Assembly: GCA_042216705.1 (NCBI GenBank)
Contig: JBDGTQ010000019.1
Coordinates: forward strand, 3,554 to 67,553
Origin: Halolamina sp.
GTDB taxonomy: Archaea; Halobacteriota; Halobacteria; Halobacteriales; Haloferacaceae
Direction: 5' to 3'
DNA length: 64,000 bases
In this document: positions 27,138 through 44,545 of the stretch, in pieces
Layout of the letters: each line of letters starts with the position of its first letter
Position numbering within the stretch: position 1 is the stretch's first letter
Program-made: the position numbers and the translations under genes
Notes under the pieces: model-generated
The model's input: the letters and a program-made list of their open reading frames with translations, nothing else
Database searches by the model: none
What the model was told of the DNA's origin: nothing

Positions 27138-28304
27138 ATGCCATATCTCTTCGTCGGCGCGGGCCAAGCGGGGTGTGCAATCGTCGACGCGGTGTTCGAC
27201 CACCAGCGCATCGCACAGCTCGCGACACCGGTGGCGATAAACTCGACCATCAGGGACCTCCAGAACCTCTCGAACGTTGACCGAGACGCGTGGTACGGAG
27301 TCGCGAGCGGTGAAGGGCTGGTTCCGGGGACCGTCCCTGGCTTCGAGGAACAGGTGACGGGTGGGTTCGGGCGCGATCCGCGAGCGGCGGCCGACGCCGT
27401 CGCCGACGCCGGGCCGGAGCTGCGGGACGCCTTCGCCGAGCAGTACGGCGAGGACGCCCCGCCGTTCGCGTTCGTCTTTCTCGGACTCGGCGGAGGAACC
27501 GGCTGCGGAATCGCGCCGCGGGTCGCCGAGGCGGTCAAGTCCTTCGGGGGGCCGTCGACGGACGTCATCGCAGTCGGCGTGTTGCCGAACACCGCCGGAT
27601 CGACGACCGACGGCGACGATGCGTCCGCGGTTCGCCAGGCCGAGAACACGGTGTACGGGCTCGACCGTCTGGAGGACGCCGTCGACGGCGTCGTGCTCGT
27701 CGACAACCAGCGCCTCGCCTACGAGGACGCCGCGGAAGGACGGTTCAGCGAGTACAACGAGTACGTCGCCGCGGCGATAGTCGACCTCATCTCCGGGCCG
27801 GTGCTCGAACGCATCGACCCGAGTTCCTACGAGGACCTGGACGCGCCAGTCATCGACCTGCAGGACGTGGTGACGTCGCTGACGCTGTCCGACGGCGGCC
27901 CTGGGTACGCGACGCTGGGTCGGTCGGTGACGATGACGAAGTCGATGCTGGGGTATCTGCTCCCGTTCGTCGGCAACGAGACGGTCGACGGGGCGACGCT
28001 GTCACGGCTGGCGGTGAGCAAGCGGAGCGTCGCCGACATCGCACCGGACGATGCGATCAAGGCGATCGGGCAGGTCCGGGCACCGGCGCGATACATCACC
28101 GACGACAGCTACCGCATCGAGGTGTCGATGATACGAGGCCTGCTCGACTCGTACTGCCCCGAGGTGAACATCGGCATGACGCTGACCGAGCGCAACCTGG
28201 CGTCGTTCACGACGCTGTTGACCTTCGAACGTGAAGACGTTTCCCGCATCCAGGAGCTGGAGGAAATCGCCGACCGAGCGACCCGCGCGGAGGCGTCGCC
28301 GTGA
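27138..28304 (+). CDS. tubulin/FtsZ-superfamily protein 2 (CetZ/tubulin-like)
   Basis: 388 aa. T1 LFVGAGQAGCAIVD at aa 4-17, T3-like TGGFGRDPRAAADA, T4 FLGLGGGTGCGIAP (aa 115-127), VVLVDNQRLAYE (compare tubulin DNEAL), T7-like APVIDLQDVVTSL (compare FtsZ NVDFADV). Confidence 0.85.
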   Translation: MPYLFVGAGQAGCAIVDAVFDHQRIAQLATPVAINSTIRDLQNLSNVDRDAWYGVASGEGLVPGTVPGFEEQVTGGFGRDPRAAADAVADAGPELRDAFAEQYGEDAPPFAFVFLGLGGGTGCGIAPRVAEAVKSFGGPSTDVIAVGVLPNTAGSTTDGDDASAVRQAENTVYGLDRLEDAVDGVVLVDNQRLAYEDAAEGRFSEYNEYVAAAIVDLISGPVLERIDPSSYEDLDAPVIDLQDVVTSLTLSDGGPGYATLGRSVTMTKSMLGYLLPFVGNETVDGATLSRLAVSKRSVADIAPDDAIKAIGQVRAPARYITDDSYRIEVSMIRGLLDSYCPEVNIGMTLTERNLASFTTLLTFEREDVSRIQELEEIADRATRAEASP

Positions 28305-28558
28305 CCCGACTGCGGACGCTCCTCACGGGCGCCGTCGTGGTCGTCGGAGCGCTGGCGCTGGCGACGCCGACCGCCGGCGGCGGCCCCGCCACGACGGCCG
28401 AACTCGTCCAGTCGGTCGCGACGACCCACCAGGCCGCGCTCGACGCGCGGCGTCTCGCAGGCGACCCGCTGGTGGCCGTCGCCGGCGGCGCGCTCGGACT
28501 GGGTGCGGGTTTCGTCGGCGGCGGCGTGGTCGCGTACAGCCGTCGGGGGTTGCGATGA
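28301..28558 (+). CDS. small membrane protein (85 aa; N-terminal signal/TM plus C-terminal Gly-rich TM)
   Basis: GTG start overlapping the upstream stop (GTGA), and its stop overlaps the next ATG (ATGA). LLTGAVVVVGALALA and VAVAGGALGLGAGFVGGGVVAY are hydrophobic segments. Confidence 0.6.
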   Translation: MTRLRTLLTGAVVVVGALALATPTAGGGPATTAELVQSVATTHQAALDARRLAGDPLVAVAGGALGLGAGFVGGGVVAYSRRGLR

Positions 28559-29643
28559 CGCCGGCGACGCGACTGCTCGCGGTCGTCGTCACGGTGGCGG
28601 TGCTCGCCGTCACGGGGGTCAGCCAGCCGGTTAGCGGCGCAGCACCGACCGCCAACGAGAGTTCCGTCGGCGTCTCTGCTCCCGACGCACCTTGTGCCGG
28701 CGTCTCCGAGACGCGGCTCGTCGGCTACCTGCCGACGAACGAGCGTGTCGAAAGCGACAGGTCGCTGTACGCCGGTTCGGAAATCGAACTGTTCCTCTGT
28801 CAGAGCGGCGACACCGAGCCGACCACCACGTGGTCGATAACCGGCGCCGACGGCTTCAAGATCGAAACGGAGGGGGAGTCGTCGGTCACAGTCGTCGTCA
28901 CCGCCGCCGACGGTGCGGTGTCGCTCGCCGACCACGTCGAGACCGACTACTCCCTTTCGGGTGCACCGTCGTTCACCCCCGTCTCGGCGTACCGAGCGAC
29001 ATCGGAACTCGGAGACGAGAGCCGAACGCTGACGTTCCCGTCTGCGGAGAGTCGGTCGGCGTTCGTCAGCAACGAGACGGCGTTCCAAAACGAGTTGCGG
29101 GAGCTCGAAACCGTCCGTGAGGAGATCAACTCGACGAACGCGACCGTCGACGGCTCGCTCGGAGCGCTCCCCGAGGACGAACTCGAACGCATCAACGGGA
29201 GCATCGGTCCGAGTGGGAAGCTGGCGACGACCGCCTCCGAACTCAACAGAAGCGCCTTCGCCGCGGTCGACGCCGGCGACGGCGGCGACGCGAGCGCCGT
29301 CATCGAAGCCGCCGGTCAGCGGCAGGCGACCGCCCGTTCGGAGACGGTCGCAGCGCTTCGGGCGTACCGGGAGCGGCTGAGCGACGTTCGTCGCGACGCG
29401 ACGCGCACGGTCCGACTCATGTTCGTGCTTCCGCTGCTCGGTCTGGCGCTCGTCGGCGCCGGCGGCGGATACGCCCTGGGCCGGCGGGTACTCGCCGGAG
29501 TGGAGTACGACCAACAGGTGTCGGCGCGGGAGTTCAGTCTCGCCGACGTCAAACTCCCGCTCGGAATCGGGACGGCGCTTCTGCTCGTCGGCGTCGGCGC
29601 GCTCGCCGTCCTCGGCAGGGCGTTCTTGGGGGTAATCGCATGA
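28555..29643 (+). CDS. secreted, sequon-rich protein anchored by two C-terminal TM helices
   Basis: Internal ATG (MTPATRLLAVVVTVAVLAVTG...) of track ORF 28231..29643. Signal peptide. Sequons NESS, NETA, NSTN, NATV, NGSI, NRSA. C-terminal VRLMFVLPLLGLALVGAGGGYAL and LPLGIGTALLLVGVGALAVLG. Confidence 0.8.
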   Translation: MTPATRLLAVVVTVAVLAVTGVSQPVSGAAPTANESSVGVSAPDAPCAGVSETRLVGYLPTNERVESDRSLYAGSEIELFLCQSGDTEPTTTWSITGADGFKIETEGESSVTVVVTAADGAVSLADHVETDYSLSGAPSFTPVSAYRATSELGDESRTLTFPSAESRSAFVSNETAFQNELRELETVREEINSTNATVDGSLGALPEDELERINGSIGPSGKLATTASELNRSAFAAVDAGDGGDASAVIEAAGQRQATARSETVAALRAYRERLSDVRRDATRTVRLMFVLPLLGLALVGAGGGYALGRRVLAGVEYDQQVSAREFSLADVKLPLGIGTALLLVGVGALAVLGRAFLGVIA

Positions 29644-31718
29644 AACGACAGTGGAGAGCCGCGCTCGGAATCGGTGGCATCGTTCTCGGAACGGCCGTCC
29701 TGGGAGCCGTCGTCTTCCTCTACGTGAGCTCCCGAGTTGGCGTGTTCGTCATCGGCGGGGGCGTCCCACTGGCACTCGTCGCCTCGGTGGCAGTGTACGC
29801 GCGAGGAGTGACGACAAGCACCACCGGCGAGAGCGACTTCGTTCGTCAGGCCGCCCGCGACGCCGCCGAGTCGTTCCGCGAGGCGGTGACGACGACGGAC
29901 CGCCTCATGACGGAGTATCCACGGTGGGACGACGACCGCGTTCAGACCCGCGGCGAGCAACTCGCCCACGACTTCGCCGACGCGGGCGTCGACTTCGACC
30001 TGTCGGCGGCGACGTTCACCGTCGACTCGCCCGAGCGGGTTCAGCAGTTCGACCGCCTCCGGGAGGACGTCGACGACTATCGTGACGTCCGGGACGAATC
30101 CTTCCGTGAGTTCGCACGGACGGAGGTCCAGCGGCTGAACGACCTCGCGGCCGACATCAGCGAGGAGTTCCTCGACGGCGGTGGACCGATGGTCACGGAC
30201 GCCACGGCGGTTCCAGGCACGGGCGACTACGTCGACGTCGAGGCAGTCATCTCGACGACCGAGGACGACGTGAGGGCCGTCGTGAAGTCCGCGCTCGACC
30301 GGCTCGAACGGTCGGTCGGCGAGTACGACGCGAGCGGCGACGCGAGCCACAGGAACGCGAAGAAAGCGCGCGAACGCGCCGACGAGGGTGACTTCGACGG
30401 AGCGGTGTCGGCGCTCCGAGAGAGCGCCGAGGCGGCCAGCGGTGAGGTCGGCGGCTCGTTCGAGGCCGATCGGAAGGCACTCGAACGCCTCCTGCAAACG
30501 GTCGACTCCACAGGCGTCGCCGACCGGGTGTCACGGGAGTACGTCGAGACCGTCGAAGAGGTCCGCGAGACGGTGACCGACCTCGATTCGCCGCTGCAGG
30601 CGACGGAGCTCAACGACGCGGCGGCGACGGCGCGGCAGGCCTGCATCCGGATGGCGGCGGAGCTCGAAGGCGACCTCGCGGCGCACGTCGACAGTATCCG
30701 CGCGGCGGAGATGCCGATGGGGTTCTACACGGCGCCGCCGGCAGTCGGGACGGAGTACGAGTCGACGCTCGCCGCGACCGAGACGCTCACCGCGTTCCGC
30801 CAGGAGTGGCTCGCAGCGGTCGGCGACCTCATGGAGGCCGTGGAGACGGCCGAGCGCAAGGCGGCGGTCGCGGACAGCTATGTTCCCGTCTCCGAGCGAA
30901 TCGGGGAGGAGCTTCGCCGCGACGGACGCGCCGCTGCGGCCGACCTCCCCGTCCACGACCCCGAGCCGTTCCTCGAGCTGTACGCCGAGCAACACGACGA
31001 GGCGGAGTACGACCCGTCGGGGCCGGCAGTCACCGCTCCCGGCGGCGACGAGACGTACGCGCTGACGGTGACCGCGCGGACCGAGGGCAGCATGGGTGCC
31101 AAGGAACGGCTCACCGTCGCTGTCGAGGGGTCCGGATACGACGACGAGCGGACGACGGAGACGTTCGCGGCGGTCGAGGAGACGTTCGAAGACGTCCCCT
31201 ACGGCGACGTCACGGTCACGGCGACCGCCGACCCGGCCGACTTCGGCGACGCCGAGGACTCCGTCCACGTCGACGGCGACCAGACGGTCGAGTTGCTGTT
31301 GCCGGAGCGGAGCCTCCGAGAGCAGGTCTGCGGCGCCGAACTCGACGCTGTACAGTCACAGCTCTCGACGGTCGGCGAGGTGCTCGCAGAGCGCTTCGAC
31401 GAGGAGGAGCATCTCTCGACCGACCAGGAGTTCCCCATCGTAGACGAGTACATCCCCTGTCTGCTGGTCCTCTGGGCGGAGCAGGAGGGACACACCGCCC
31501 GCCGCGACGACGGGAGGGTGCTCGTCTACGACGACGACCAGTTCGGATCTAGATTGGAAACCATCGTGAACCACAACATCACCGACGGCGATTCGATGAC
31601 GTTCGACGAGATGCGAGCGAAGTTTCTCTCGGTGCCGGCCTCGGACGAGCTACTGGCCGACATCGTGACCGATATCGACGGGTCAGTCACCGTGCGTGAC
31701 GGGGAGGTGTACGCCTGA
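29640..31718 (+). CDS. membrane protein (two N-terminal TM) with large acidic soluble domain
   Basis: 692 aa. ATGA overlap upstream, TGATG overlap downstream. AALGIGGIVLGTAVLGAVVFLYV and GVFVIGGGVPLALVASVAVYA, then about 620 acidic aa without recognisable motifs. Confidence 0.8.
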   Translation: MKRQWRAALGIGGIVLGTAVLGAVVFLYVSSRVGVFVIGGGVPLALVASVAVYARGVTTSTTGESDFVRQAARDAAESFREAVTTTDRLMTEYPRWDDDRVQTRGEQLAHDFADAGVDFDLSAATFTVDSPERVQQFDRLREDVDDYRDVRDESFREFARTEVQRLNDLAADISEEFLDGGGPMVTDATAVPGTGDYVDVEAVISTTEDDVRAVVKSALDRLERSVGEYDASGDASHRNAKKARERADEGDFDGAVSALRESAEAASGEVGGSFEADRKALERLLQTVDSTGVADRVSREYVETVEEVRETVTDLDSPLQATELNDAAATARQACIRMAAELEGDLAAHVDSIRAAEMPMGFYTAPPAVGTEYESTLAATETLTAFRQEWLAAVGDLMEAVETAERKAAVADSYVPVSERIGEELRRDGRAAAADLPVHDPEPFLELYAEQHDEAEYDPSGPAVTAPGGDETYALTVTARTEGSMGAKERLTVAVEGSGYDDERTTETFAAVEETFEDVPYGDVTVTATADPADFGDAEDSVHVDGDQTVELLLPERSLREQVCGAELDAVQSQLSTVGEVLAERFDEEEHLSTDQEFPIVDEYIPCLLVLWAEQEGHTARRDDGRVLVYDDDQFGSRLETIVNHNITDGDSMTFDEMRAKFLSVPASDELLADIVTDIDGSVTVRDGEVYA

Positions 31719-32920
31719 TGGCCCGAGCTGACACCTACACGCGCTGGGGCATCGTCGCCGCCGGCGAGGGCGGCGGCCGCATCGCCGCCGAGTTCTTCGC
31801 CCGCAGCGACAACCCGGGAATCGACGACCGCATCGTCCTGTTGAACACGAACCGCGCCGACATTCGTAACACCATCGAGCAGGCCAACATCGAGGACTCG
31901 CTGGACGAGTACACGACGGTCTTCGGGTCGAAACGCGGCGTCGGCAACTCGTTCCTCGCCGGCGAGGAGTGCGCCAGGGAGGGCCTCGACGACATCGCTA
32001 GACAGATCGACGACAGAGCGCCCGACGCCGACGCGTTCCTCCACACGACGACGCTGGGCGGCGGCACGGGCAACGGCACCATCCCGTATCTGATGCGACA
32101 GTTCGACGCCGGGTCGGAGATGGAGACGCGACGGCCCTGGATGGACAGCGCGGTCCACATCGCTCTGGCGGCGTGGCCGTACTACGACGAGCCGGCTCAC
32201 AGACAGTTCAACGCCATCTGCGGTCTCTCCCGACTCCTCCGCCGGCGCGACGGCGAACAGAACGCCGACATGGTGTTGCTGGCGGCGAACTCCCACCTCG
32301 ACGAGAGCGGTGCTGCCGACAGCTACGACGCGGTCAACAGGCGGATTCTTTCGGCCATCGACCTGCTCATCAGCGCCGGTCGAGAGGCCCACGGCGTCGT
32401 CGACGTCGAAGATTACGTCGCCAAGCCGTCGGAAATCGGGGCGTATCACTTCACCCCGGCGGTCGGCGAGGGGCTGAACGCGAAGATGCTCGAGTTCGAA
32501 CTCCTGTTCGACCGCGCCGCCGAGAACGCGTTCGTTCCGATGGACGTGGGGACTTCGCGGGCAGCCTACGCCATCGTACGCGCTCCCGAGAGGCTGATCG
32601 ACAGCGGCGAGGTGACCACGAACGACGTCAAGAGCGCGTTCAACGACTGGAAGCGCAAGCACGGGCTGGGTGCGGCGGTCGGCATGTCCACGCTGGCCCC
32701 CAAAGACGACCGCAGCAACGACGTCGACGTGTTGTTACTGCTCGGCGGCTTCGATCTGAACCCCCTGTTGGAGCACGCGCGGGGGCGGTTCGAGGAGCAC
32801 AAGGAGAACCTCGAAACGGCCAGACAGCTCGGCACCCAGGCCGAGTCCGCGGTTTCGGAGGCGTACCTCGCCGACCTCGAGGACAACCTCCAGACGTACG
32901 TCGACTTGAACGCGAGGTGA
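31718..32920 (+). CDS. tubulin/FtsZ-superfamily protein 3
   Basis: 400 aa. T1 WGIVAAGEGGGRIAAEF, T3-like FGSKRGVGNSFLAGEE, T4 FLHTTTLGGGTGNGTIPYL, MVLLAANSHL, T7-like HGVVDVEDYV, in canonical order. Confidence 0.8.
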   Translation: MARADTYTRWGIVAAGEGGGRIAAEFFARSDNPGIDDRIVLLNTNRADIRNTIEQANIEDSLDEYTTVFGSKRGVGNSFLAGEECAREGLDDIARQIDDRAPDADAFLHTTTLGGGTGNGTIPYLMRQFDAGSEMETRRPWMDSAVHIALAAWPYYDEPAHRQFNAICGLSRLLRRRDGEQNADMVLLAANSHLDESGAADSYDAVNRRILSAIDLLISAGREAHGVVDVEDYVAKPSEIGAYHFTPAVGEGLNAKMLEFELLFDRAAENAFVPMDVGTSRAAYAIVRAPERLIDSGEVTTNDVKSAFNDWKRKHGLGAAVGMSTLAPKDDRSNDVDVLLLLGGFDLNPLLEHARGRFEEHKENLETARQLGTQAESAVSEAYLADLEDNLQTYVDLNAR

Positions 32921-32926
32921 CCGCGC

Positions 32927-35740
32927 GTGAGAGCCAGCACACCACGACTGCCCGCGGCGGTGACGGCGGCTCTCGTCGCCGCCGTCGTCGCCGGCGCCGC
33001 GATGGGAGGTGCCGTGACGACCCTCGCCGGCGTCGCTCCCGCGAGCGCCACCTCGGCGACGGCTCAGGCCGACGGCGACGTCCGACAGGCGGCCAACGGT
33101 GACCTGGTCGTGGAACTCGACGCCAGCGAGGTGAACGAGAGCAACGCAGTCACCATCGCCGTCGCCGACCAGACGTACGAGCGGCCGGGGTCGGGGAACC
33201 AGACGCTCACGTACACGGTCGCAGCCGGCGAGCTCCCGGACGGCGGCGTCGCGGACACGAACGTGACTGTCACTCAGGACGGGGACCGACTGGCGACGGC
33301 GACGCTCGACCTGCGGTACCTCCGTCTGAGCGACGGCCCGCGGTTTGACGACCGAGGGCGACTGGTGCTCAACGTCGACCGGAGCGTCGGCGTCGCGGGT
33401 GCAACAGTCAACCTGACGGTAACCGGCAACGGCGCGACCGAGCAGGTCCCGGTCGACGTTGGCGCTGACGGGTCGACGGTCCGGCTGGCCCGGACGCAGT
33501 CGTTCGTCGAGACGGCGTTGCTCCCTCCGACGTCGATAACGGTGGGTGATGCCGACGGCGGAGCGACCGTCCCGAACGAGGTCACGGTACCCATCCCAGA
33601 GACGGTGTCGTCGGGGACAACCGTCAGCGTCGTCGGCGACACGGTCGTCGTGGAAAGTCCGCTGCTCGTCGGGGGGGCGGAGTACGACGTGACGGTGCAG
33701 ACGACGGAGCCGAGCGGTGAGTACCAGGACCGTGCGACCGCCGGACAGCCGGATAACGGAATCGCACGACTGACCGTGGAGAACGGAGAGGTCACTGCGG
33801 CCAGCGAACTCACGGCGAGCGTGACGTACCGCGGTACGGACGTCACGTCGGCGACCGCGACGACGACCACCGCTCCGCTGTCGGCCACGCTGGAATATAA
33901 CGGATCCGGCGATAACGCGACGGTGATCAACGTCTCGGGGATGGGCGACGTCGGAACGGTCGAGAAGGTGCTCCTCAAGACAGCTAACGACGTCTACGCC
34001 GTCAACGAGGTGAATCGAGACGGGAGTCTGCTCCGCTTCCCGAATCTGTCGGTCACCTCGGGGCGGTACGAACTCGCTGTGATAGGCGCCGACGGGACGG
34101 CTCGGCTCACCGTCGGCGAGGGAGCACTCGGCGAGGTCGGCGGAGACGAAGCGATATCGTCGGGGAGCGACTCGGGCGTCGGCCGCTCATCCGGCACGTC
34201 GCTGTCGCCGCGGAACGTTCTCGTCGTGCTGGTGGCGCTTGTTCTCGGCGGTGGTGGCGTGTACGCCTTGCTCTCCGTGGCACCTGGAGGGTCGGGCGGA
34301 CGACGCAGGTCACGACGGGCCGGCGGCGCTCGGACCGCCTCGGTGCAGGTGACGGTCCGGGACGAACAGACCGGCCACCCGGTCGACGGGGGCCGCGTCG
34401 TCGCCCGGAAGGCGGGGCGCAACGAGTTCAATACCGAGGGGCCGGCTGCGTCGGCCGAACTCGTCGACGGGACGGCCGACCTCACGCTCGAACCCGGCCC
34501 CAGCTACAGGGTCGAAGCTCAGTACGGCGGCACGACCGCCGTCGAGCGGGTCGAAAATCTCGCGAGCGACCGCCAGTTGTCGATTTCGTTGCCGCCACTG
34601 CGGACGCAGTTGTCCGTCGTCGACGACCGCAGCGAGCCGGTGACCGAGGCGGACGTGTCGTTGACGGGCGCCGACGTGTCGGGCGAGCGTGCCGTCCGGG
34701 ACGATGGCACCATTCAGCTGAAGCTGTCGCCGGTGCAACGCGACATCACTCTCACGGTCGAACACGACCGCCTGACCGACGAGACGGTCCACGTGGACGA
34801 GCCCGCGGACCTGCCGAGCAGAGTCGTGCTCGGCGTCCCGACCGGGTCGGTGACGGCGTCGCTGTCGATAGACGGCGAGGCGACCGACTGCGGGCGGATC
34901 GAGCTCGAACCTGCCGAAGGGTGGTTACGCGACCGCGTCGACGTCGAGTACGCCGAGGTCTCCGACGGGGAGGTCAGCTTCGAGAGCCTCCCGGCCGGGG
35001 CGTACGAGGTGACCACCGCCGTCGGGGGCGAACAGTTCGACACGGCGACGGAGACGGTGCGCGTCCAGAACGGGGGTCGCGCTCGGGCACGGCTGGACGT
35101 CAGCTTCGAGTACGACCTCTCGGCCGACCAGCGGAACCGACTCGCGGAACTGCAGACGGCCGCGGACGACCTCGTGCCGACGAGTCAGCTCGACGGGGCC
35201 GTCCACCGCTACTACGCCAGCGTCGTTCGGTCGCTGGTGAGCGAAATCGAGCGGGTGCCGCGGCTCGGCGCGCGCTTCGCCGGCGCGGACGTCGGCCCCG
35301 ACGAGACCGTCGAGGCGCTGCTGTGGGCCGGCGAGTCGCTGCTGGACATCATCGACCCGGCGCTGAACACGAAGCACAACGTCGACCTCTTCAGCGCGTG
35401 TGCGAACATGCGCCAGGCGGACATCCGCTGGGAAAGTGGTTACGAGCTCGACTCGTTCTTCGAGTTGGCCGCGGCCGACCGCGGCGAACAGCGGTCCCGG
35501 CTGCGGGCGGCGCTGTCCGAGGCCGAGTCGACGGTCGAGGCGGAGCGGTCGGAGGTGACCGTCGCCTCCCCGGCCCGGGCCGTCATGGACGAGCTTCAGT
35601 CGCACGTTCAGGACACGCGGGAGTCCGACGAGGTCCGCCACGCGGCGCTGACCGTCGTCGTCGTCGGCCTGGCCGACGCGGTGGAAACGCTGTTCGACCA
35701 TCCGGAACTCCGGGACCGACTCAACAGGACGGTGTACTGA
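32927..35740 (+). CDS. large bitopic envelope protein: signal peptide, about 420-aa sequon-rich ectodomain, one TM, about 490-aa cytoplasmic domain
   Basis: 937 aa, GTG start. Signal AAVTAALVAAVVAGAAMGGAV. Sequons NESN, NQTL, NVTV, NLTV, NGSG, NATV, NVSG, NLSV all precede the TM VLVVLVALVLGGGGVYALLSV, which is followed by RRRSRRAGGAR (positive-inside). Then beta-sandwich-like repeats (VQVTVRDEQTGHPVDGGRVVA...) and a helical tail. Confidence 0.85.
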   Translation: MRASTPRLPAAVTAALVAAVVAGAAMGGAVTTLAGVAPASATSATAQADGDVRQAANGDLVVELDASEVNESNAVTIAVADQTYERPGSGNQTLTYTVAAGELPDGGVADTNVTVTQDGDRLATATLDLRYLRLSDGPRFDDRGRLVLNVDRSVGVAGATVNLTVTGNGATEQVPVDVGADGSTVRLARTQSFVETALLPPTSITVGDADGGATVPNEVTVPIPETVSSGTTVSVVGDTVVVESPLLVGGAEYDVTVQTTEPSGEYQDRATAGQPDNGIARLTVENGEVTAASELTASVTYRGTDVTSATATTTTAPLSATLEYNGSGDNATVINVSGMGDVGTVEKVLLKTANDVYAVNEVNRDGSLLRFPNLSVTSGRYELAVIGADGTARLTVGEGALGEVGGDEAISSGSDSGVGRSSGTSLSPRNVLVVLVALVLGGGGVYALLSVAPGGSGGRRRSRRAGGARTASVQVTVRDEQTGHPVDGGRVVARKAGRNEFNTEGPAASAELVDGTADLTLEPGPSYRVEAQYGGTTAVERVENLASDRQLSISLPPLRTQLSVVDDRSEPVTEADVSLTGADVSGERAVRDDGTIQLKLSPVQRDITLTVEHDRLTDETVHVDEPADLPSRVVLGVPTGSVTASLSIDGEATDCGRIELEPAEGWLRDRVDVEYAEVSDGEVSFESLPAGAYEVTTAVGGEQFDTATETVRVQNGGRARARLDVSFEYDLSADQRNRLAELQTAADDLVPTSQLDGAVHRYYASVVRSLVSEIERVPRLGARFAGADVGPDETVEALLWAGESLLDIIDPALNTKHNVDLFSACANMRQADIRWESGYELDSFFELAAADRGEQRSRLRAALSEAESTVEAERSEVTVASPARAVMDELQSHVQDTRESDEVRHAALTVVVVGLADAVETLFDHPELRDRLNRTVY

Positions 35741-35742
35741 TC

Positions 35743-36789
35743 ATGGTCCCGACAGACGCACGCGTCGCGGTGGGTGCGGTCGTCGCCCTCGTGTTGACGA
35801 CGACGGTCGCGTCGGGCGCGGTCGCCGGAGCAGCGACGGCGACGACGGCGACGGCGACGACGGCAGTCCCGCCGCCGACGGCGGACGAACTGCTCACGCG
35901 GCTCCAGTCCTTCGAGGAGGAGCCGGCGCTGAGCGAGTACAGCGAGTTGGAGGTGATGCGGAGTCAGGCGGTTTCGACGGTACAGGTCGGCAACGCATCC
36001 CTCGCCGAGCGACGCCGTATCGCCGGCATCGTGACGGTGCTCTCGGAGTTCGTCGAGGCGTACGAGCTGGCCGCCGCCGGCGACCGCATCGAGAGCCTCG
36101 AAGCGGCGAACGAGACGCAGACGGCCATCGACTCGGTGAGGGAAGCGGGCGGCGACCAGTACGCGCGACTGGCGCAGGTGGCTCTGGAGCGGTTCTATCG
36201 CGACCAGGGAGACGAGCTCTACCAGCGCGGACAGGAGTCCACGAACACCACGGCGAAGCTCGAACTGTACGGCGCCGCACGTGAGGCGTACGAGGCCGGC
36301 GGTGCTGACCGACGGCTCGCGGAGATAACGGTGGTTTCCCAGGAGCTCCGAGCCGAGTTCGCCGTCGACAGCCGACGGTTGTCGGGGGCGCTGGCGAACG
36401 CCTCGGCGTTCGTCGCCGACTGTGGCGACGGCTGTGACGGTCCGCTCGCCGCGCTCGCCGCGCTCGGACCGAACGTCTTCGCCGCCTACACCGACGCCCG
36501 TCGCGCCCACGCCGCCGCTCGACAGGCCCAGCGCCTGTCGGACAAACACGGCCTGACCGCCCGCTCCGAGCGCGCCGCGACGCTGGTCGACGAGTCCGGG
36601 ACGGCGCTCGGCAGCTTCGCGGTCGCGAGCGTCCTCCTCGCGCTCGGCTACGGCGGTGCCGTTGCTCTCGTCGGTGCCGTCGTGAGCCACCGGCTCGCAA
36701 CGTGGGCGCTCGAAGTCGAGGGCGCACGAGTCGGACGCATCGTCCCACAGGCGACCGTCGAAGTCGAGCCGGAGGTGACCGAGTCGTGA
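35743..36789 (+). CDS. secreted helical protein with C-terminal TM anchor
   Basis: Internal ATG (MVPTDARVAVGAVVALVLTTTVASGAVAG...) 3 nt after the upstream stop. Sequons NASL, NETQ, NTTA, NASA. C-terminal FAVASVLLALGYGGAVALVGAVV. Confidence 0.75.
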   Translation: MVPTDARVAVGAVVALVLTTTVASGAVAGAATATTATATTAVPPPTADELLTRLQSFEEEPALSEYSELEVMRSQAVSTVQVGNASLAERRRIAGIVTVLSEFVEAYELAAAGDRIESLEAANETQTAIDSVREAGGDQYARLAQVALERFYRDQGDELYQRGQESTNTTAKLELYGAAREAYEAGGADRRLAEITVVSQELRAEFAVDSRRLSGALANASAFVADCGDGCDGPLAALAALGPNVFAAYTDARRAHAAARQAQRLSDKHGLTARSERAATLVDESGTALGSFAVASVLLALGYGGAVALVGAVVSHRLATWALEVEGARVGRIVPQATVEVEPEVTES

Positions 36790-39500
36790 GGGGGCGCCGT
36801 CCGCTCGCGGCGCTGGCGATGGTCGCGCTGCTGGTCGCGGGGGCATCGACGGGCGCCGTCGCCGCGTCCGGGAGCGTCGAACTCGACGCCGCGCTGTCGG
36901 AGCAATCGAAGACCGACGAGCTGACGTTCACTTTCACCCCGTCACAGGACGCGACCGTCACCGCCACCGACCGCATCGAGCGCGCGAACGGTAACGTCAC
37001 GTTCGCGTTCGACGAGTGGGAGCGGACCGACGGCCAGGGGTCGGGGACGAACAACAGCTGGGATGTCGTCGCCGGCGTCGAGTACCGAGTGACGTACGTC
37101 GCCACCGCACGGTCCGGCGCCGCCGAGGACACCTACTTCGGGACGGCGGAGGTCACCGCCAGCGACGGGTCGTTGGTGGCCGACGAGTCGCTGTCGCTGC
37201 AGGTCGACGTGTTGTATCCGCAGTTCGGCTTCGTCGACAGGCAGTCCACCGAGGTCGTGTTCGACGACGCGGACCTGCAATCGGCTTCGAGCCAGGTGTC
37301 GTTTCCGGTGCCGAACTCCGGCCAGGGGGTGATGAAGCCGACGGACGTCTCGGTGAGCAACCTCCCTCAGGGGTTCACCGTCGCCTCGACGGCGCTGCCC
37401 GACACCGTCTCGCCCGGCAGCGAGGGCGAAGGGACCGTCGAACTCGCCGTCGACGACGACGTCAACGAGGGAACATATAGCTTCGACGTGACGGTGACGG
37501 ACTCGCTGGGCAACCAGCGGTCGTTCGCCGTCGACGCCACGGTTTCGAAGCCGCCGATCGCCGACGTCTCCGACACGGAGGCGAACCTCGGCGACGTGCT
37601 CGTCGGGCAGACGAGCCGGAAGACGTTCAGCGTCTCCGAGACGGCCGGATTCGAGGGTCTGAGCGGCGTCACCGTCGACGACTCGTCGGCGGAGCAGGAC
37701 GCCACGCTCGACTTCGAAGGACTGTCGCGGGTGTCGACGCAGCCGAGCGGCTCCGACACCGCGACGGCAGTCGTCGACGTCAGCAGCGACGCGAGACAAC
37801 ACGAGACGCTGTCGTGGACGGTGCAGCTCAGCGGCGAGGCGCCCGACTCGCCGACGCGGCAGGTCGAGTTCGAGGCGCGGGTCATCTATCCGGCGCGACT
37901 GGGCACCGTCGAGGCGTCGTCGACGACGCTTCCTTTCGACGAGCCCCGCGACCAGGTGTCGGCTCAGGACGGGTCGACGACGGTCAGCGTCGAGAACACC
38001 GGGGACCTGGAGATGGACGTCACGGGCGTCGACGTGACGATGCAGAGCGGAAGCCAGGACATCTCCGCCAGGGCCGTCGACGTGCCCGACACGGTGGCCG
38101 GACTCTCCAGCCAGAACGTGACGATACGGTACCGCGCCGACGCGGACACTCCCGAGGGGAGTTACGACGCGGTGGTGACGGTCAGGACGGCCGACGCCGG
38201 GACGCAGACCGTCGAAACCACCGTCGAGGTGACCCAATCGGCCGAGCTCGTCGTCGACGACCGAATGCAGTTCGGCGAGGTGACGATAACCAGCAACCAG
38301 ACCCGGTCCGCAGACGTCGCCGAGCGACTCGGCTACGAGGACGTGACCGGGCTGACGGTCGAGGTGGTATCGGGGCCCGAAGAGTGGCTGACGCTGGTCC
38401 AGCAGCCGCCATCGCGCCTCGACGCCGGGACGGAGTCGTCGCTGGTCGCCGCCGTCCGCTTCGACACCGAGGCCGAACTGTACACGGAGTACACCTGGAC
38501 CATCCGGGTCGACGGCGAGGACGTCGAGCCTCAGACCGTCACCATCTCCGCGACGGCGAAGCCCTACTCCTTCGACCGCGTCACGGAGCCGCTCGGGGAG
38601 TACTCCGACCGAGGCGACTGGCGGGCGGAGACGGCCAGCGGTACGCTCTCGGCGCTTTCGACGCTCGAATCCGATCTCCGCGGCGACGGATCGGTCGCCG
38701 ACGGCGACCTCTCGTCGGCGCTGGCGGCCGGCCGCGCGACGCTACTGTTCATCGAATCCATCGAGGACGCCCGTACCGCCCAAGAGGACGGGGAGTACGC
38801 CGGCGCCCAGGAGAACCTCACCCGAGCGGCGGCAGCCAGGGATCTGCTGGTGCAGTACGTAGACGCGATTCAGTCCGATGAGGTCCGCTCGGCGGCGCGG
38901 GAGTCGCTCCAGGCCGCGAACGCGTCGCTGTCGGAAAGCGTCGCCGCGCAGCGCGGCCACTACCAGGACGTTCTCGCGGACGACCCGAGCGCGTTCGAAC
39001 GGGCCAGGGCCCACCGCGCTCTGGCCAGGCTCGCGACCATCACCGGCGACGAGACGACCGCGAGCGAACACCGCGAGCAGTACGAGGCCGCCTCCGACCG
39101 GTACGTGACGCTGGTGCAGAACGCTTCGACCGCCCGCGCCGAGGCCGGCAGCGCCTGGACCGCCTACCGAGCGGAGGCGACGCTGGTGGTCGCCGGCTAT
39201 CCGCTCGTCCTCAACCCCGCCAGGCTCGACACCACGCTGGCGCGAACGAGCCGAGTGAATCGGCTTTATGCCGAGGCCGAGACGATGTACGCCGAGGCGG
39301 GCGCGACCGCAGAGGCTGAGGCGGTGAACCAGCGCGCCGCGACGGTGTCGAGCCGAGCGACCGTATCGCGGTACGTTCTGTACGGGACGACGGGCGCCTA
39401 CGGCATTGGGTTCCTCGCCGTCGTCGCCAGACTGTCGCTGAACGCCTACGCGTTCGTCCAGGACACGGCCGCGGCCGCGACCGGCGACTTCCTCCGCTGA
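36786..39500 (+). CDS. large secreted sequon-rich surface protein (Ig/CARDB-like repeats plus helical region) with C-terminal TM anchor
   Basis: GTG at 36786 overlapping the upstream stop (GTGA); alternative ATG at 36819. Signal LAALAMVALLVAGASTGAVAASG. Repeated beta-rich modules (VELAVDDDVNEGTYSFDVTVTD, TVSVENTGDLEMDVTGVDV, YDAVVTVRT). Sequons NVTF, NNSW, NQTR, NVTI, NLTR, NASL, NAST. C-terminal GAYGIGFLAVVARLSL. Confidence 0.8.
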   Translation: MRGRRPLAALAMVALLVAGASTGAVAASGSVELDAALSEQSKTDELTFTFTPSQDATVTATDRIERANGNVTFAFDEWERTDGQGSGTNNSWDVVAGVEYRVTYVATARSGAAEDTYFGTAEVTASDGSLVADESLSLQVDVLYPQFGFVDRQSTEVVFDDADLQSASSQVSFPVPNSGQGVMKPTDVSVSNLPQGFTVASTALPDTVSPGSEGEGTVELAVDDDVNEGTYSFDVTVTDSLGNQRSFAVDATVSKPPIADVSDTEANLGDVLVGQTSRKTFSVSETAGFEGLSGVTVDDSSAEQDATLDFEGLSRVSTQPSGSDTATAVVDVSSDARQHETLSWTVQLSGEAPDSPTRQVEFEARVIYPARLGTVEASSTTLPFDEPRDQVSAQDGSTTVSVENTGDLEMDVTGVDVTMQSGSQDISARAVDVPDTVAGLSSQNVTIRYRADADTPEGSYDAVVTVRTADAGTQTVETTVEVTQSAELVVDDRMQFGEVTITSNQTRSADVAERLGYEDVTGLTVEVVSGPEEWLTLVQQPPSRLDAGTESSLVAAVRFDTEAELYTEYTWTIRVDGEDVEPQTVTISATAKPYSFDRVTEPLGEYSDRGDWRAETASGTLSALSTLESDLRGDGSVADGDLSSALAAGRATLLFIESIEDARTAQEDGEYAGAQENLTRAAAARDLLVQYVDAIQSDEVRSAARESLQAANASLSESVAAQRGHYQDVLADDPSAFERARAHRALARLATITGDETTASEHREQYEAASDRYVTLVQNASTARAEAGSAWTAYRAEATLVVAGYPLVLNPARLDTTLARTSRVNRLYAEAETMYAEAGATAEAEAVNQRAATVSSRATVSRYVLYGTTGAYGIGFLAVVARLSLNAYAFVQDTAAAATGDFLR

Positions 39501-39516: not shown

Positions 39517-42315
39517 TCAGCGGAACCCGGTTGAGAGCCGGTCGTTGACCGGCGGGGGCCCACCGTCGTCGTCGCGCCGAAGCTCCCAATCGTACTCCTC
39601 TCCGCGGTCCGTGCCGTGGAACGACACCGACCCCGAGTCGGGCTCGGGTCCTCGTACTTCGAGGTCGAGGCCGACCGTCACGTCGCCGTCGACGTCCACC
39701 AAGTCGACATCGTCGGTGACCGTCTCGCCCGGCTCGACCGTCTCGAACTGGTAGCCGTCGTAGAGGAAGTCGTCGACGGCCTCGCCGGTCGCCAGCGTCT
39801 CCAGTCCGGTGAGCGATCGGTCGCCGTCGTTGGTCAGTTCCACCTCCAGAAACCCCGTGTCGCCCTCGATACGAGACGCCGCTCCGGCGGCGACGGTCAG
39901 CTCCGACAGCGGGGCGGACTCGGCCCAGCGGTCGACCTCGTGTCGGGGGGCAAGCGTCCGAACTGTCCGCGAGCCGTCGGGGCCGTCGACCTGTAGCTCG
40001 ACGGTGGCGGTCTCGACGTCGGGCGACTGCGTCAACTCGCGCTCGACGAGCCTGACGTCGTCGATTCGTTCGTCGACCGTGACGCGTTCGGCCGTCTCGC
40101 CGACCGTCGCGTGGGCGACGCTCAGTTGCGGGTCGGACCCGTCGAGGACGACGGTGAGTTCGTTCCCGTCGTCGCCTGCGAGCAGGCGCGCGTACGGCGT
40201 TAACGGGTTCTCGGTGACCGGGAGCGTTCGACCGCGGGCGCTGGCCGTCTCCGTCGGCGTCGCCGTTTCGGCCTCGGTCTCGCTTTCGGCCCCGCGGTCG
40301 GATACCGGCCTAGCCTCGGCGGTGAACTGCGGGATGTCGACCTCGTCGTCGTACGAGACGTGACGTCTGGTCGCTCCGGTGGAGTCGTCCGGCTGGATAC
40401 CGACGGTCGTCTCGAACTCTCCGTCGTCGGTCCAGAGCGTCGCCCGCACCGGGTCGTCGCTCTCGTTGGTGACGCGGACCGTCTCCTCGAAGACGTGCCC
40501 GCGGACCGCCCGCTCCGTCGAGAGCTCCCGGACGACCGACAGCGACGACGCCGACTCGTCTTCGTTGGTCGGGACGGATGCCGAGCCGAACGAATCGGCC
40601 GAGTCCGTCGAGTTAGCCGAGGTAGCCGAGGTAGTGGAGTCCGGGGTCGGCGGGCCGGCGTCGCGGCGCGGCTCGGTCGGCGGTTCCACCGTCGGTTCGG
40701 AGACCGCAACCGACTGTGACAGGGTCCCGGCAGCGGTGTCGACGACGACCTCGCGTTCGCCGGCCGCCGTGGTCGGAACCGCGAGGACGGCCGCACCATC
40801 GGCCGGGAGCGTGAGTTCGCGCTCGACGCGCTCGCCGTCGGCCGGCACTCCCTCGACGGCGACGGTGTCGACCGCGGCCGCGGGAACCCCGTTCGAGAGG
40901 TGAACGTCGACGAAGCCGTCTGCGGCGGCGTCGACGCGTATCTCCGTCGGCGTGACGGGGTAGTCGAGCGCGACGGTCCGACGGTCGACCTCGGCGGCGT
41001 CGACGGCCACCTCGCCGGTCGGCAACGAGCGGCTGAGGCCGACGGTCTCAGTCTCTCCGGGGGGGAGGCCGCCGAGGACGGTCCCGTCGACGGTTACCTC
41101 CGAGAGCGGTGCTTCGCCGGCGTTCTCGACGGTCACGTCGACGTCGACGGCGCCGTGGTCGACCGCCGTCGCCGTCGCCTCGGAGACCAGTGCGGTCTCG
41201 TTTTCGACCACCGGGAGCGTGACACTTCGCTCGTCGTCCGGCTCCCGGACGGTCACCGTCACCGCCTCGGCGTCCGCTCGAATCGACCGCACGCCGACGC
41301 GTCGGGTCGTCGACTCCTCGGGGCCGAGGGTGGCGTCGAGCCGGGTCGTCGACAGGGTCGCCCCCTCGGCCGTCACCTCGATGGTCGCGTCGACCGACGT
41401 CGGCGCCTCGTTGGAGACGGTCATCGGGATAGCGCCCGTGGACTCGTCCACCTCGTTGACGTCGACGGCGACGCCGACTTCGTCGGTCGCGTCGACGGTT
41501 CGGGAGAACACGCTCACCGTCTCCTCGGTGACCCGACAGGCGACCCCGCCGTCCGCGCTAACCACGATTCGGTCGCCGGGGTCCAGTCCGCCGACGTCGA
41601 CGGTGTCGCCCTCGACGCCGAGGGCGAAAATGTCGCTGTCGGCGTGACACAGCAGCTCTCTCGACCCCCGTGGCGCGAGCCAGTCGACGGCGACGTCGGT
41701 CGACCACCGGCGGTCGCCGTCCGACCCGAGCGCGACCGTTCGACCGTCCCGTAACGCCGTGACGACGACGTCGTCGACGACGCCGACCGCGTCGATGGCA
41801 CCGTCCAGCGTCTCGTCGGCCAGAACCTCCCCGTTCCAGTCGACGACCGAGACGAACGACCAGGCGGCGACGACGATGAACGGCTCCGCGGCCACCACCG
41901 CCGGGTCCGCCGTCACGTCCGAGTGAGGCTGCTCGAACCGGCGGCGCTCGACTCCGGTCTCGCCGTCGAGGACGGCGAGCGCGGCGTCTTCCGTCCGGAC
42001 CACGACCCGGGTGGTCGCCGGGTCGACGTGAACGGCGGCGGCGCCGAGGTCGTCGACGCGCCAGACCCTGCTTCCCGCCTGACTGTAGGCCGTGAGTCCG
42101 GCCTCGGTGAGGGCGTACACCCGGTCGCTCAGTGCCACGTCCGTGACCGACTCCCCCTGAGCGACCGTCCGCCGGTCGCGGGAGTCGGCGACGACGACGC
42201 CGTCGTCGGTGCCGAGCGCGACCGCGTCGGTGCCGACCGCCGTCGCGCGGACGGCGGGAGCCTCGAACGCCCCTCGCTGAGCGAAGCGTCCCTCCGTGCG
42301 CTCCCCGGCGTTCAT
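39517..42315 (-). CDS. large signal-less protein: N-terminal beta-propeller-like repeats plus Ig/CARDB-like repeat array
   Basis: 932 aa, ATG overlapping the AAA gene stop (ATGA). No hydrophobic N-terminus or TM. The first 270 aa or so show repeated 'D..VVV...DG.V.AL....G...W' strands (PQQ/WD-like). These are followed by VDVDVTVENAGEAPLSEVTVDG-type CARDB-like modules and a Ser/Thr/Pro linker. Confidence 0.8.
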   Translation of the reverse strand: MNAGERTEGRFAQRGAFEAPAVRATAVGTDAVALGTDDGVVVADSRDRRTVAQGESVTDVALSDRVYALTEAGLTAYSQAGSRVWRVDDLGAAAVHVDPATTRVVVRTEDAALAVLDGETGVERRRFEQPHSDVTADPAVVAAEPFIVVAAWSFVSVVDWNGEVLADETLDGAIDAVGVVDDVVVTALRDGRTVALGSDGDRRWSTDVAVDWLAPRGSRELLCHADSDIFALGVEGDTVDVGGLDPGDRIVVSADGGVACRVTEETVSVFSRTVDATDEVGVAVDVNEVDESTGAIPMTVSNEAPTSVDATIEVTAEGATLSTTRLDATLGPEESTTRRVGVRSIRADAEAVTVTVREPDDERSVTLPVVENETALVSEATATAVDHGAVDVDVTVENAGEAPLSEVTVDGTVLGGLPPGETETVGLSRSLPTGEVAVDAAEVDRRTVALDYPVTPTEIRVDAAADGFVDVHLSNGVPAAAVDTVAVEGVPADGERVERELTLPADGAAVLAVPTTAAGEREVVVDTAAGTLSQSVAVSEPTVEPPTEPRRDAGPPTPDSTTSATSANSTDSADSFGSASVPTNEDESASSLSVVRELSTERAVRGHVFEETVRVTNESDDPVRATLWTDDGEFETTVGIQPDDSTGATRRHVSYDDEVDIPQFTAEARPVSDRGAESETEAETATPTETASARGRTLPVTENPLTPYARLLAGDDGNELTVVLDGSDPQLSVAHATVGETAERVTVDERIDDVRLVERELTQSPDVETATVELQVDGPDGSRTVRTLAPRHEVDRWAESAPLSELTVAAGAASRIEGDTGFLEVELTNDGDRSLTGLETLATGEAVDDFLYDGYQFETVEPGETVTDDVDLVDVDGDVTVGLDLEVRGPEPDSGSVSFHGTDRGEEYDWELRRDDDGGPPPVNDRLSTGFR

Positions 42316-43916: not shown

Positions 43917-44545
43917 GATTCGGTTGTCTGAATGACTCGTTTGAGGAACGATTCGACGCGGTCGTAGTCGGCATCGACCAACCCGTCGGGCGGGTACAAC
44001 CACAGCATCTCGGCGGTCAACCTGTCGAGGACGCCGGCGAACGTCGCGAACGCCTCGGCGATGTCGCCGAACGTCGCCGGGAGATGCTCCCCGGCGACGA
44101 GGTCGAGTCGCCGTCGGAGGCGCCGGCACTCCCCTGCGAGCTCGCGGAGCCGCTCGCTCGTCCACGGGAGCACGACGTACCAGTTCGCGGTCGTCGGGCC
44201 GTCCCGGCGGAGGGGCACGATCAACGACCCCGTCGGACGGTCACAGCGGTCGTCCTGACACGCGCGGTCAACCGCCTCTGCGACGGCGTCGGTCGGGGCG
44301 CGGTCGTCGTACCGCGCGTCGAGGATCTGCCTCACCGCGAGGTCGGCCGCGTCGGTCGGCTGTGACTCCAGTCGCGGCGGCGGGCCGATGCCGGCCGTCA
44401 GCGTTCCCAACTCCCACAGCACGTCCGTGAGGCGCTGGGCTCGCTTCCACGCCGCATCCTGGTCGCCCAGCCGGCGCCGCTCGTGAAGCACGCTCAGTTC
44501 CTCCCGGAGGACACGAACCCTGTCGGTCCACGAAGCGGCGTACAT
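43913..44545 (-). CDS. hypothetical protein (210 aa)
   Basis: ATG start. Its stop overlaps the AAA ATPase start (ATGA). Normal composition, no recognisable motif. Confidence 0.65.
   Translation of the reverse strand: MYAASWTDRVRVLREELSVLHERRRLGDQDAAWKRAQRLTDVLWELGTLTAGIGPPPRLESQPTDAADLAVRQILDARYDDRAPTDAVAEAVDRACQDDRCDRPTGSLIVPLRRDGPTTANWYVVLPWTSERLRELAGECRRLRRRLDLVAGEHLPATFGDIAEAFATFAGVLDRLTAEMLWLYPPDGLVDADYDRVESFLKRVIQTTES

Follow-up and report, generated by a model that had tools for sequence, protein, structure and literature searches.

Background

The gene considered here has its closest described counterpart in the 'Halo_adaptin' locus of Haloquadratum walsbyi C23, an ESCRT-like locus for which the accessible parts of the original report (Makarova et al., mBio 2024, PMC10936438) give the order winged helix-turn-helix protein, coiled-coil protein, ESCRT-III-like protein, Vps4-like ATPase, two 'adaptin (TRAP-beta) appendage' proteins, a 'membrane anchored' protein of arCOG12846, a protein of arCOG04500 and FtsZ3 of arCOG02202. 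The stretch of DNA that we analysed, referred to hereafter as the window, comprises 64,000 nucleotides (nt) of a Halolamina sp. genome (GenBank assembly GCA_042216705.1, contig JBDGTQ010000019.1, positions 3,554 to 67,553 of the forward strand), and its genes follow the order of the C23 locus in reverse. Our subject is a single gene of this window, located at 32927–35740 on the plus strand and coding for a protein of 937 amino acids (aa), which very probably exposes large domains on both sides of the membrane. Because the window order is that of C23 reversed, we regard this protein as the positional counterpart of arCOG04500 (WP_014555339.1 in C23), with which it shares its place between the arCOG02202 tubulin and the arCOG12846 protein. 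Homology was measured to the H. walsbyi J07HQW1 member rather than to the C23 protein: a relative of 1096 aa (in a cluster with ERG90707.1) aligns by tblastn with residues 57–937 at 35% identity (E 7e-42). The Haloquadratum form differs in carrying five transmembrane (TM) helices, compared to one in the window protein.

In the accessible parts of PMC10936438, the only description given of the arCOG04500 protein is that of an 'Ig-like domain' protein, and the legend of Figure S7 names 'TMH' and 'HD', so that a domain cartoon may exist there; the same parts contain no mention that we could find of topology, of a helical head or of coupling to a tubulin gene. The ESCRT-III assignment of the locus rests, according to Table S3 of that paper, on an HHpred probability of 33, and the published ESCRT-like reading as a whole is experimentally untested. 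'Halo.Tub' genes standing in quasi-tandem among unknown genes were noted separately in what is accessible of Santana-Molina et al. 2023 (PMC9871819), and a full-text literature search for arCOG04500 returned no paper. The cluster, and the presence of the 937-aa gene in it, are therefore already in print, while in the parts of these sources open to us we did not find the two-sided topology, the odd number of TM helices, the cytoplasmic stalk-and-head build, the orphan head or the strict coupling to the neighbouring tubulin-like gene T3 that are described below.

Predicted two-sided topology

The gene and the parts of its product that bear on membrane topology are as follows.

32927..35740, plus strand: whole gene of a predicted bitopic membrane protein, 937 aa, coordinates including the stop codon
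32927..33067, plus strand: N-terminal leader, residues 1–47, with MRASTPR, hydrophobic residues 7–37 and the A-x-A-like sites PASA and AQA
33068..34216, plus strand: predicted extracellular half, residues 48–430, with eight N-x-S/T sequons, zero Cys and a Gly/Ser-rich stalk at its end
34217..34279, plus strand: predicted single TM helix VLVVLVALVLGGGGVYALLSV, residues 431–451, from hydropathy
34280..34336, plus strand: predicted cytoplasmic juxtamembrane linker, residues 452–470, with the Arg cluster RRRSRRAGGAR

The frame is uninterrupted over its 937 codons and the following stop. A Kyte-Doolittle scan (19-residue window, threshold > 1.6) detects two hydrophobic stretches only, at residues 7–37 and 429–454. 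The first of these, together with a positively charged N-terminus and the A-x-A sites, makes up a leader which we presume to be a Sec signal peptide or a signal anchor, as judged by inspection of the sequence rather than by a signal-peptide predictor; whether it is cleaved or kept as a second anchor, the two halves of the protein lie on the same sides.

A sequence-only reading of the window had proposed that a signal peptide is followed by one TM segment at about nt 34216–34290, that eight sequons all fall between the two, that the Arg-rich stretch RRRSRRAGGAR comes after the TM segment and that the N half is consequently outside the cell and the C half inside. The sequence elements of this proposal are present in the protein, the signal peptide as a presumed one. 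The helix occupies nt 34217–34279, the sequons are at residues 70, 91, 112, 162, 325, 330, 335 and 373, between leader and helix without exception, and the Arg cluster lies in the linker, the strings GGRRRSRRAGGAR and APGGSGGRRRSRRAGGAR following the helix. A ninth sequon, NRT at residue 933, is located inside the C-terminal motif; its Asn position varies in relatives (N, E, S, K, T), and residue 933 is therefore not a conserved glycosylation site. Taken alone, the sequon signal of this one protein is modest: residues 46–430 hold eight against 3.7±1.7 expected, a count reached in 2% of 2000 shuffles, and the C half holds one against 1.3 expected from shuffles, which is suggestive and not compelling.

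The family as a whole gives a much clearer picture. Among 102 full-length representatives (clusters at 50% identity), an automated count found one TM helix in 46, three in 31, five in 12, seven in one and an even number in 12, so that 90 are odd. On inspection by eye, ten of the 12 even counts were judged to be miscounts (either an outer-half beta-strand had been scored, or a weak final helix overlooked, or the leader included) and two stayed unclear, and in the 38 loci read by eye the number was always one, three or five. Because the number is odd, the two halves should lie on opposite sides of the membrane. With the N half taken as outside, predicted inner loops contain 15.4 Lys plus Arg per 100 residues, compared to 3.6 for outer ones; the inside value is the higher in 72 of 89 proteins, including 31/31 of the forms with three TM helices, with 16 ties and a single reversal. 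The outer halves contain 836 sequons against 279 expected from shuffles, a threefold excess that the inner halves do not share (177 observed, 162 expected), and Cys is found twice in 35,229 outer residues versus 176 times in 44,459 inner ones. An N-terminal hydrophobic segment is detected in 98 of the 105 long representatives.

Therefore, the placement of the N half outside and of the C-terminal ~486 aa in the cytoplasm, as put forward in the sequence-only reading, is strongly supported by the odd helix number, the positive-inside bias, the one-sided sequon enrichment and the distribution of Cys, and we consider this predicted arrangement very probable. The central hydrophobic stretch is flanked by low-complexity linkers and has three or five TM helices in its place in relatives, and thus does not behave as a segment buried in a globular fold.

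Within the TM helix, G441 is invariant and Y446 nearly so among the 11 closest homologues. In other relatives (loci L049–L074, e.g. Haloquadratum L058 and L062, and L050), a bundle of three or five helices stands in place of the single one, with first loops rich in Arg and Lys. Since such bundles occur there, the membrane part may do more than anchor the protein, for example by packing against other membrane subunits.

Sequence comparison shows the outer half to be fast-evolving: its identity to the window protein is 21–34%, and it could be aligned in 12 loci only. It ends in a stalk rich in Gly, Ser, Thr and Asn. Pfam recognises no family in the window sequence of this half and only single stray matches in relatives, a sequence-profile search against the PDB gave a best E of 0.14, and the Atlas's own low-confidence model of the region yields weak Ig-like repeat look-alikes with TM-scores of 0.27–0.47.

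A predicted cytoplasmic stalk and a helical head

The C half was modelled with AlphaFold2 from an alignment of 45 sequences, with a mean pLDDT (the per-residue confidence score) of 92.3 and a pTM (the predicted fold-level score) of 0.75. The model consists of a disordered linker of 15 residues, three beta-sandwiches and a helical domain (residues 733–932), in agreement with the earlier expectation, drawn from the sequence, of sandwich-like repeats followed by helices. The disordered part corresponds to the first 15 residues of linker 452–470, where pLDDT is below 50. The folded parts are listed below; Z values and root-mean-square deviations (rmsd) are from VIA structural alignments.

34337..34591, plus strand: beta-sandwich 1, transthyretin/CarboxypepD_reg-like, residues 471–555 (AlphaFold2 model residues 20–104), Z 12.1 and rmsd 1.9 over 81 residues to 3e8v_A
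34598..34831, plus strand: beta-sandwich 2, residues 558–635 (model residues 107–184), Z 10.8 to 5aq0_B, the transthyretin-like domain of carboxypeptidase D
34841..35101, plus strand: beta-sandwich 3, with the PF13620 match, residues 639–725 (model residues 188–274), Z 10.6 to 1qmu_A
35123..35737, plus strand: all-helical C-terminal head domain, residues 733–937, with the motifs NTKHNVDLFSAC and LFDHPELRDRLNRTVY

All three sandwiches adopt, in the model and by VIA comparison, the transthyretin-like seven-stranded fold. They superimpose on transthyretin-like and carboxypeptidase-regulatory domains with Z of 10.6–12.1 and rmsd of 1.6–2.1 Å over about 76–85 aligned residues, and Foldseek additionally matches them to pilin and CnaB-type proteins. 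The fold common to the three is thus that of CarboxypepD_reg (PF13620), which is recognised directly on residues 228–272 of the C half with 33.0 bits, barely above the gathering cut-off of 32.3, and which was found in 43 of 45 family members. A Pfam scan of the whole 937-aa protein returned no family at E <= 0.01, and NCBIfam none for this protein or for its cluster neighbours M3, M2 and X1. No adaptin or TRAP-beta chain is among the matches listed for the C-half model, where transthyretin, CnaB and pilin folds appear instead.

Conservation within the protein is highest in the helical head, whose identity to the window sequence is 28–58% (30–58% in 37 loci). Modelled alone, it reaches a pLDDT of 94.4 and a pTM of 0.91. 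Its two motifs read NTK(H/R)NVDLF-AC and LLDAVE-LFEH--LR-RL-RTV(F/Y), the latter ending exactly at the C-terminus. Searches with the head gave no clear relative: the best PDB hit by sequence profile had an E of 0.31; Foldseek gave zero PDB matches at E <= 0.001 (best 0.19) and likewise zero among the viral models of BFVD; VIA-align against 48,161 chains gave a best Z of 7.3, to a designed cage protein, with the rest at or below 5.7, all below the meaningful range for helical models; and the Atlas held no usable match. The head is thus without a clear match to solved folds, which does not by itself prove a new fold. The 50 best VIA matches of a head model spanning residues 726–937 include four gamma-tubulin-complex GCP entries (Z 4.8–5.6) and the FtsZ regulator EzrA (Z 4.8–5.3), values in the noise range for helical domains and of interest as a lead at most.

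Some orthologues of a single genus (L051, L054 and L060) have a longer C half, of 536–549 aa versus about 480, and their profile matches are split at positions 862/865. In L054 and L060 the split is caused by a low-complexity, Arg/Gly/Ser-rich insertion of ~50–65 residues in a loop of the head (alignment columns 125–190).

Distribution, gene order and coupling

A search profile built from 11 homologues matched 43 of 401 sampled Halobacteria genomes, belonging to 22 of 91 genera (window genome included). The match covers the whole length in 16 of these genomes and the post-TM part only in 23; in the remaining four it is weak and partial. Homologues of 900–1170 aa occur in Halobacteria, species with the cluster including Halorubrum distributum/litoreum, Halobaculum spp., Haloarcula rubra, Halosimplex rubrum and Haloquadratum walsbyi, and 120 proteins were retrieved at E <= 1e-30 from a search of 1.84 billion representatives. 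In a separate sample of 401 genomes from across the phylum, the helical domain alone was found in seven, all in two families of Halobacteria (f1 and f4); the other families of this sample gave no match, which is not proof of absence.

The genes that flank the 937-aa gene in constant order are these.

29640–31718, plus strand: M2, two N-terminal TM helices, then a 630-aa acidic domain with one sequon
31718..32920, plus strand: T3, third tubulin/FtsZ-like GTPase, 400 aa, PF00091 37.6 bits, adjoining the 937-aa gene in 38/38 loci
35743..36789, plus strand: M3, 348 aa, leader, helical part with sequons, CGDGCDG motif and C-terminal TM helix, in the position of arCOG12846
36702–39500, plus strand: A1, one of two 'adaptin-like' proteins, a 932-aa frame starting RGRRPLAALAMVALLVAGASTGAVAASG, with a C-terminal hydrophobic helix or TM segment in the window

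In all 38 loci, taken from other genomes, the order is M2 (of the 692-aa type), T3, the 937-aa gene, M3 and A1. The spacing is equally constrained. In the window, the GTG start of the 937-aa gene lies 6 nt past the stop of T3 and is preceded by GAGGTGA, and the ATG of M3 (35743) follows 2 nt past the stop of the 937-aa gene; across the family, the candidate start is found between -4 (overlap) and +9 nt from the T3 stop in 38/38 loci, with an ATG at +4 used for two Haloquadratum loci. M3 adjoins the 937-aa gene in every one of the 38. Because both order and start position hold in all loci, we conclude that the gene is a fixed and, as far as its spacing tells, translationally coupled member of the cluster.

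An origin of the cluster from a mobile element or virus was considered and rejected: GC content is uniform over the cluster, the order of the genes does not vary over 22 genera and no viral structural match was obtained for the head. G+C is 66–74% throughout the window, the proteins of which are acidic, as in haloarchaea.

The surrounding cluster

The three tubulin-like neighbours named in the sequence-only reading are indeed present: the Pfam tubulin/FtsZ GTPase domain (PF00091) is detected at 23891–25519, 27138–28304 and 31718–32920, all on the same strand. The last of these is T3. Its C-terminus (window 32800–32920) consists of a variable Gly-rich linker followed by an acidic helix in which N390, L391 and Y394 are invariant (..DNL..Y..), and the tails of T1 and T2 differ from it. 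FtsZ-type proteins dock on the membrane tethers FtsA, ZipA and SepF through just such a layout of linker and C-terminal tail, and by analogy the T3 tail is likely to be a docking peptide.

Two further genes of the cluster are the following.

25524–26984, plus strand: X1, predicted cytoplasmic helical protein, directly after tubulin T1
28305–29643, plus strand: M1, leader, domain with six sequons and two C-terminal TM helices

The last 25 residues of X1 read LLD-V--LYERNEYSVMLRRLRG and are kept in 6/6 loci; they resemble the end of the 937-aa protein, LLDAVE-LFEH--LR-RL-RTVF, at the same distance from the C-terminus. A module common to the head and X1 was nevertheless rejected, as hhalign gives a probability of 1–2% and the two X1 alignments are mutually inconsistent, and so was one common to the head and M2 (hhalign probability 0.4%).

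M1 and M2 appear to be further two-sided membrane proteins of the cluster, the 630-aa acidic domain of M2 being probably cytoplasmic. In M3, an N-terminal hydrophobic segment is detected in 34 of 38 loci, and over these 34 loci 78 sequons are observed against 34 expected; this protein may partner the outer half of the 937-aa protein. Orthologues of A1 have an N-terminal hydrophobic segment in 38/38 loci and not a single Cys in 23,759 residues, while their sequons are not enriched (89 versus 136 expected). A1 may thus be exported, in which case it would fit poorly with a cytoplasmic adaptin-like role. Beyond it, the propeller protein A2 (39517–42315) is without a leader, and an AAA ATPase gene (PF00004, 42312–44165) lies convergent on the minus strand.

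By simple sequence criteria, the predicted cytoplasmic set of the cluster would comprise the three tubulins, X1, the acidic domain of M2, A2 and the ATPase operon, and the set with exported parts M1, the 937-aa protein, M3 and A1. Because it splits in this way into cytoplasmic and partly exported proteins, the cluster looks like an envelope-spanning assembly.

Proposed role and alternatives

We suggest that the 937-aa protein is a type-I-like membrane glycoprotein linking the cytoplasmic part of the cluster to the outside, an overall explanation to which we give about an even chance. It would be a constant subunit of a Halobacteria-specific cluster in which three tubulin-like GTPases are brought together with an ESCRT-like ATPase operon. 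Following the leader, some 380 fast-evolving, N-glycosylated and Cys-free residues would lie outside the cell, and one helix (three or five in relatives) would cross the membrane. Inside, a flexible Arg/Gly linker would lead into the three tandem transthyretin-like sandwiches, which would serve as a spacer of ~10 nm, as estimated from the number of domains, and hold out the conserved helical head of 200 residues. The head would then dock on one of the cytoplasmic products of the cluster, the likeliest being T3 via its conserved C-terminal tail helix. On the other side, the outer half would touch the surface layer (S-layer) or further exported proteins encoded in the cluster, so that where a cytoplasmic filament lies, or the force that it exerts, could be communicated across the membrane. 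A coupling function of whatever kind, which fits the gene order and the tight coupling to T3, is plausible though slightly less than evenly probable. T3 is the prime candidate for the partner because it is the coupled upstream gene and has an FtsZ-like tail layout; specific binding of the head to T3 nonetheless has to be regarded as a tentative proposal, rather less probable than the coupling function itself.

Several observations weigh against this explanation. In the structural comparison above, no known binder of tubulin or FtsZ shows a detectable resemblance to the head. Adjacency and coupling of genes indicate co-production, not contact, and the tail of T3 might just as well have M2, X1 or some other protein as its partner. 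The topology signals come from our own hydropathy script and inspection by eye rather than from a dedicated TM or signal-peptide predictor, and the representatives behind the family-wide counts are related to one another, so that these counts overstate the independence of their evidence, although they agree in direction. Lastly, the most familiar transthyretin-, CnaB- and pilin-like sandwiches belong to extracellular proteins, which on its own would suggest that the C half is outside; their fold is the only hint contrary to the topology that we propose.

Of the alternatives, a role as cargo, or as a cargo receptor, in ESCRT-like sorting survives best, although we consider it unlikely. The protein would be recognised by the propeller/Ig 'adaptin-like' protein and the Vps4/Cdc48-like ATPase and sorted into vesicles, with the tubulins forming a separate matter. 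This would extend the reading of the locus given in the accessible parts of PMC10936438 (Makarova et al.), and a cytoplasmic head that is conserved would be an apt target for a sorting machine, the genes for the AAA ATPase (42312–44165) and the leaderless propeller protein (39517–42315) adjoining the cluster. However, it is the tubulin gene, and not the convergent ATPase operon on the opposite strand, to which the 937-aa gene is coupled in 38/38 loci; an inspection by eye found no MIT-interaction motif or other known sorting motif; and the reading from which this alternative derives is itself untested, with its ESCRT-III assignment standing at the HHpred probability of 33 mentioned above.

Less probable again is a transmembrane receptor, the variable outer half of which would sense a surface or environmental cue while the head regulates tubulin-like polymerisation, so that a signal and not a mechanical load would be transmitted. 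The combination of a fast-evolving outer half with a conserved cytoplasmic head speaks for such a protein, the tight coupling to T3 suits it equally, and the invariant Gly of the TM helix is compatible with helix-helix signalling dimers. Yet the Pfam and NCBIfam scans revealed no known signalling domain (kinase, HAMP, PAS, GGDEF etc.), three rigid sandwiches between membrane and head resemble a spacer more than a signal relay, and the exchange of one TM helix for three or five in relatives would be unusual for receptors of the piston or rotation type.

That the protein acts mainly at the cell surface, as a structural protein or adhesin whose cytoplasmic part merely anchors or stabilises it, seems to us improbable. 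Conservation is highest in the cytoplasmic head and not in the outer half, a folded cytoplasmic region of 486 aa far exceeds the needs of an anchor, and gene order is fixed within a cytoskeletal cluster. These features outweigh the likeness of the sequon-rich, Cys-free outer half to haloarchaeal surface glycoproteins, as well as the finding that the nearest Atlas cluster by features is a 'PGF-CTERM sorting domain-containing protein' (score 0.75, a lead only). An arrangement with both halves outside, or with the two sides exchanged (C half out, N half in), is suggested by prealbumin/CnaB-like sandwiches being typical of secreted proteins, but it is very hard to reconcile with an odd helix number in 90/102 representatives, a reversed charge bias in only 1/89, an N half that alone is enriched in sequons and poor in Cys, and a leader in 98/105.

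Returning to the membrane-spanning link that we favour, its most far-reaching form would be a machine so far undescribed in prokaryotes, in which filaments of the tubulin family are mechanically joined to exported glycoproteins or the S-layer through a rigid three-sandwich stalk and an orphan head clasping the tail of the tubulin dedicated to it. We regard this as a speculative possibility that is more doubtful than the link in general. If it were true, it would represent an archaeal functional counterpart of the links between cytoskeleton and cell surface in eukaryotes, and might underlie envelope shaping or vesicle budding in the Halobacteria that bear the cluster. With the topology strongly supported, what was an 'Ig-like domain protein' of the three-tubulin cluster becomes the subject of a concrete hypothesis. 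The published ESCRT/'adaptin' reading is affected as well, since several proteins of the cluster look extracellular and not cytoplasmic.

Comparison with known tethers

To our knowledge, filaments of the tubulin family depend on tethers for any action on membranes, and few such tethers have been identified in archaea. Two of these, described only in 2025–2026, are CdpA (HVO_0739, PMC12126565) and CdpC (HVO_0399, bioRxiv 10.64898/2026.07.16.738847), which according to their abstracts tether FtsZ2 and FtsZ1 in haloarchaea. The working proposed for the 937-aa protein is the same as that of CdpA, CdpC and SepF, namely that of a membrane-bound protein whose cytoplasmic domain holds a filament of the tubulin superfamily at the membrane. 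In those three cases, however, binding has been shown, whereas for the 937-aa protein it is a proposal from genes and models. Pfam and NCBIfam scans of the 937-aa protein revealed no family in common with CdpA, CdpC or SepF, a comparison made at the level of families rather than of the sequences themselves. The partner would differ too, being FtsZ for CdpA and CdpC and, for the 937-aa protein, a divergent tubulin that is neither FtsZ nor CetZ. Finally, the abstracts on CdpA and CdpC mention no large extracellular domain, while the 937-aa protein has a predicted one; as a tether, this family would differ in build by the large glycosylated portion that it exposes outside the cell.

In its sandwiches, the protein shares a fold with PF13620-type domains, whose best-known representatives, in carboxypeptidase D, pilins, adhesins and NOMO of the BOS complex, face the cell exterior or a lumen; in the 937-aa protein the fold is predicted to form a cytoplasmic spacer. 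The ZipA C-terminal and SepF families, as known tethers, gave no match: Pfam at E <= 0.01 and NCBIfam were empty for the full-length protein, and its C half was matched by beta-sandwich families only. We conclude that the 937-aa protein is not a member of the known tether families and may merely work like them. Its closest textbook analogue, as regards the proposed docking of head to tail, is ZipA of the gamma-proteobacteria, a bitopic protein whose linker leads to a globular C-terminal domain by which the C-terminal peptide of FtsZ is bound. The N-terminus of ZipA is outside, yet hardly any of the protein is extracellular, and its linker is disordered, where the 937-aa protein has three beta-sandwiches.

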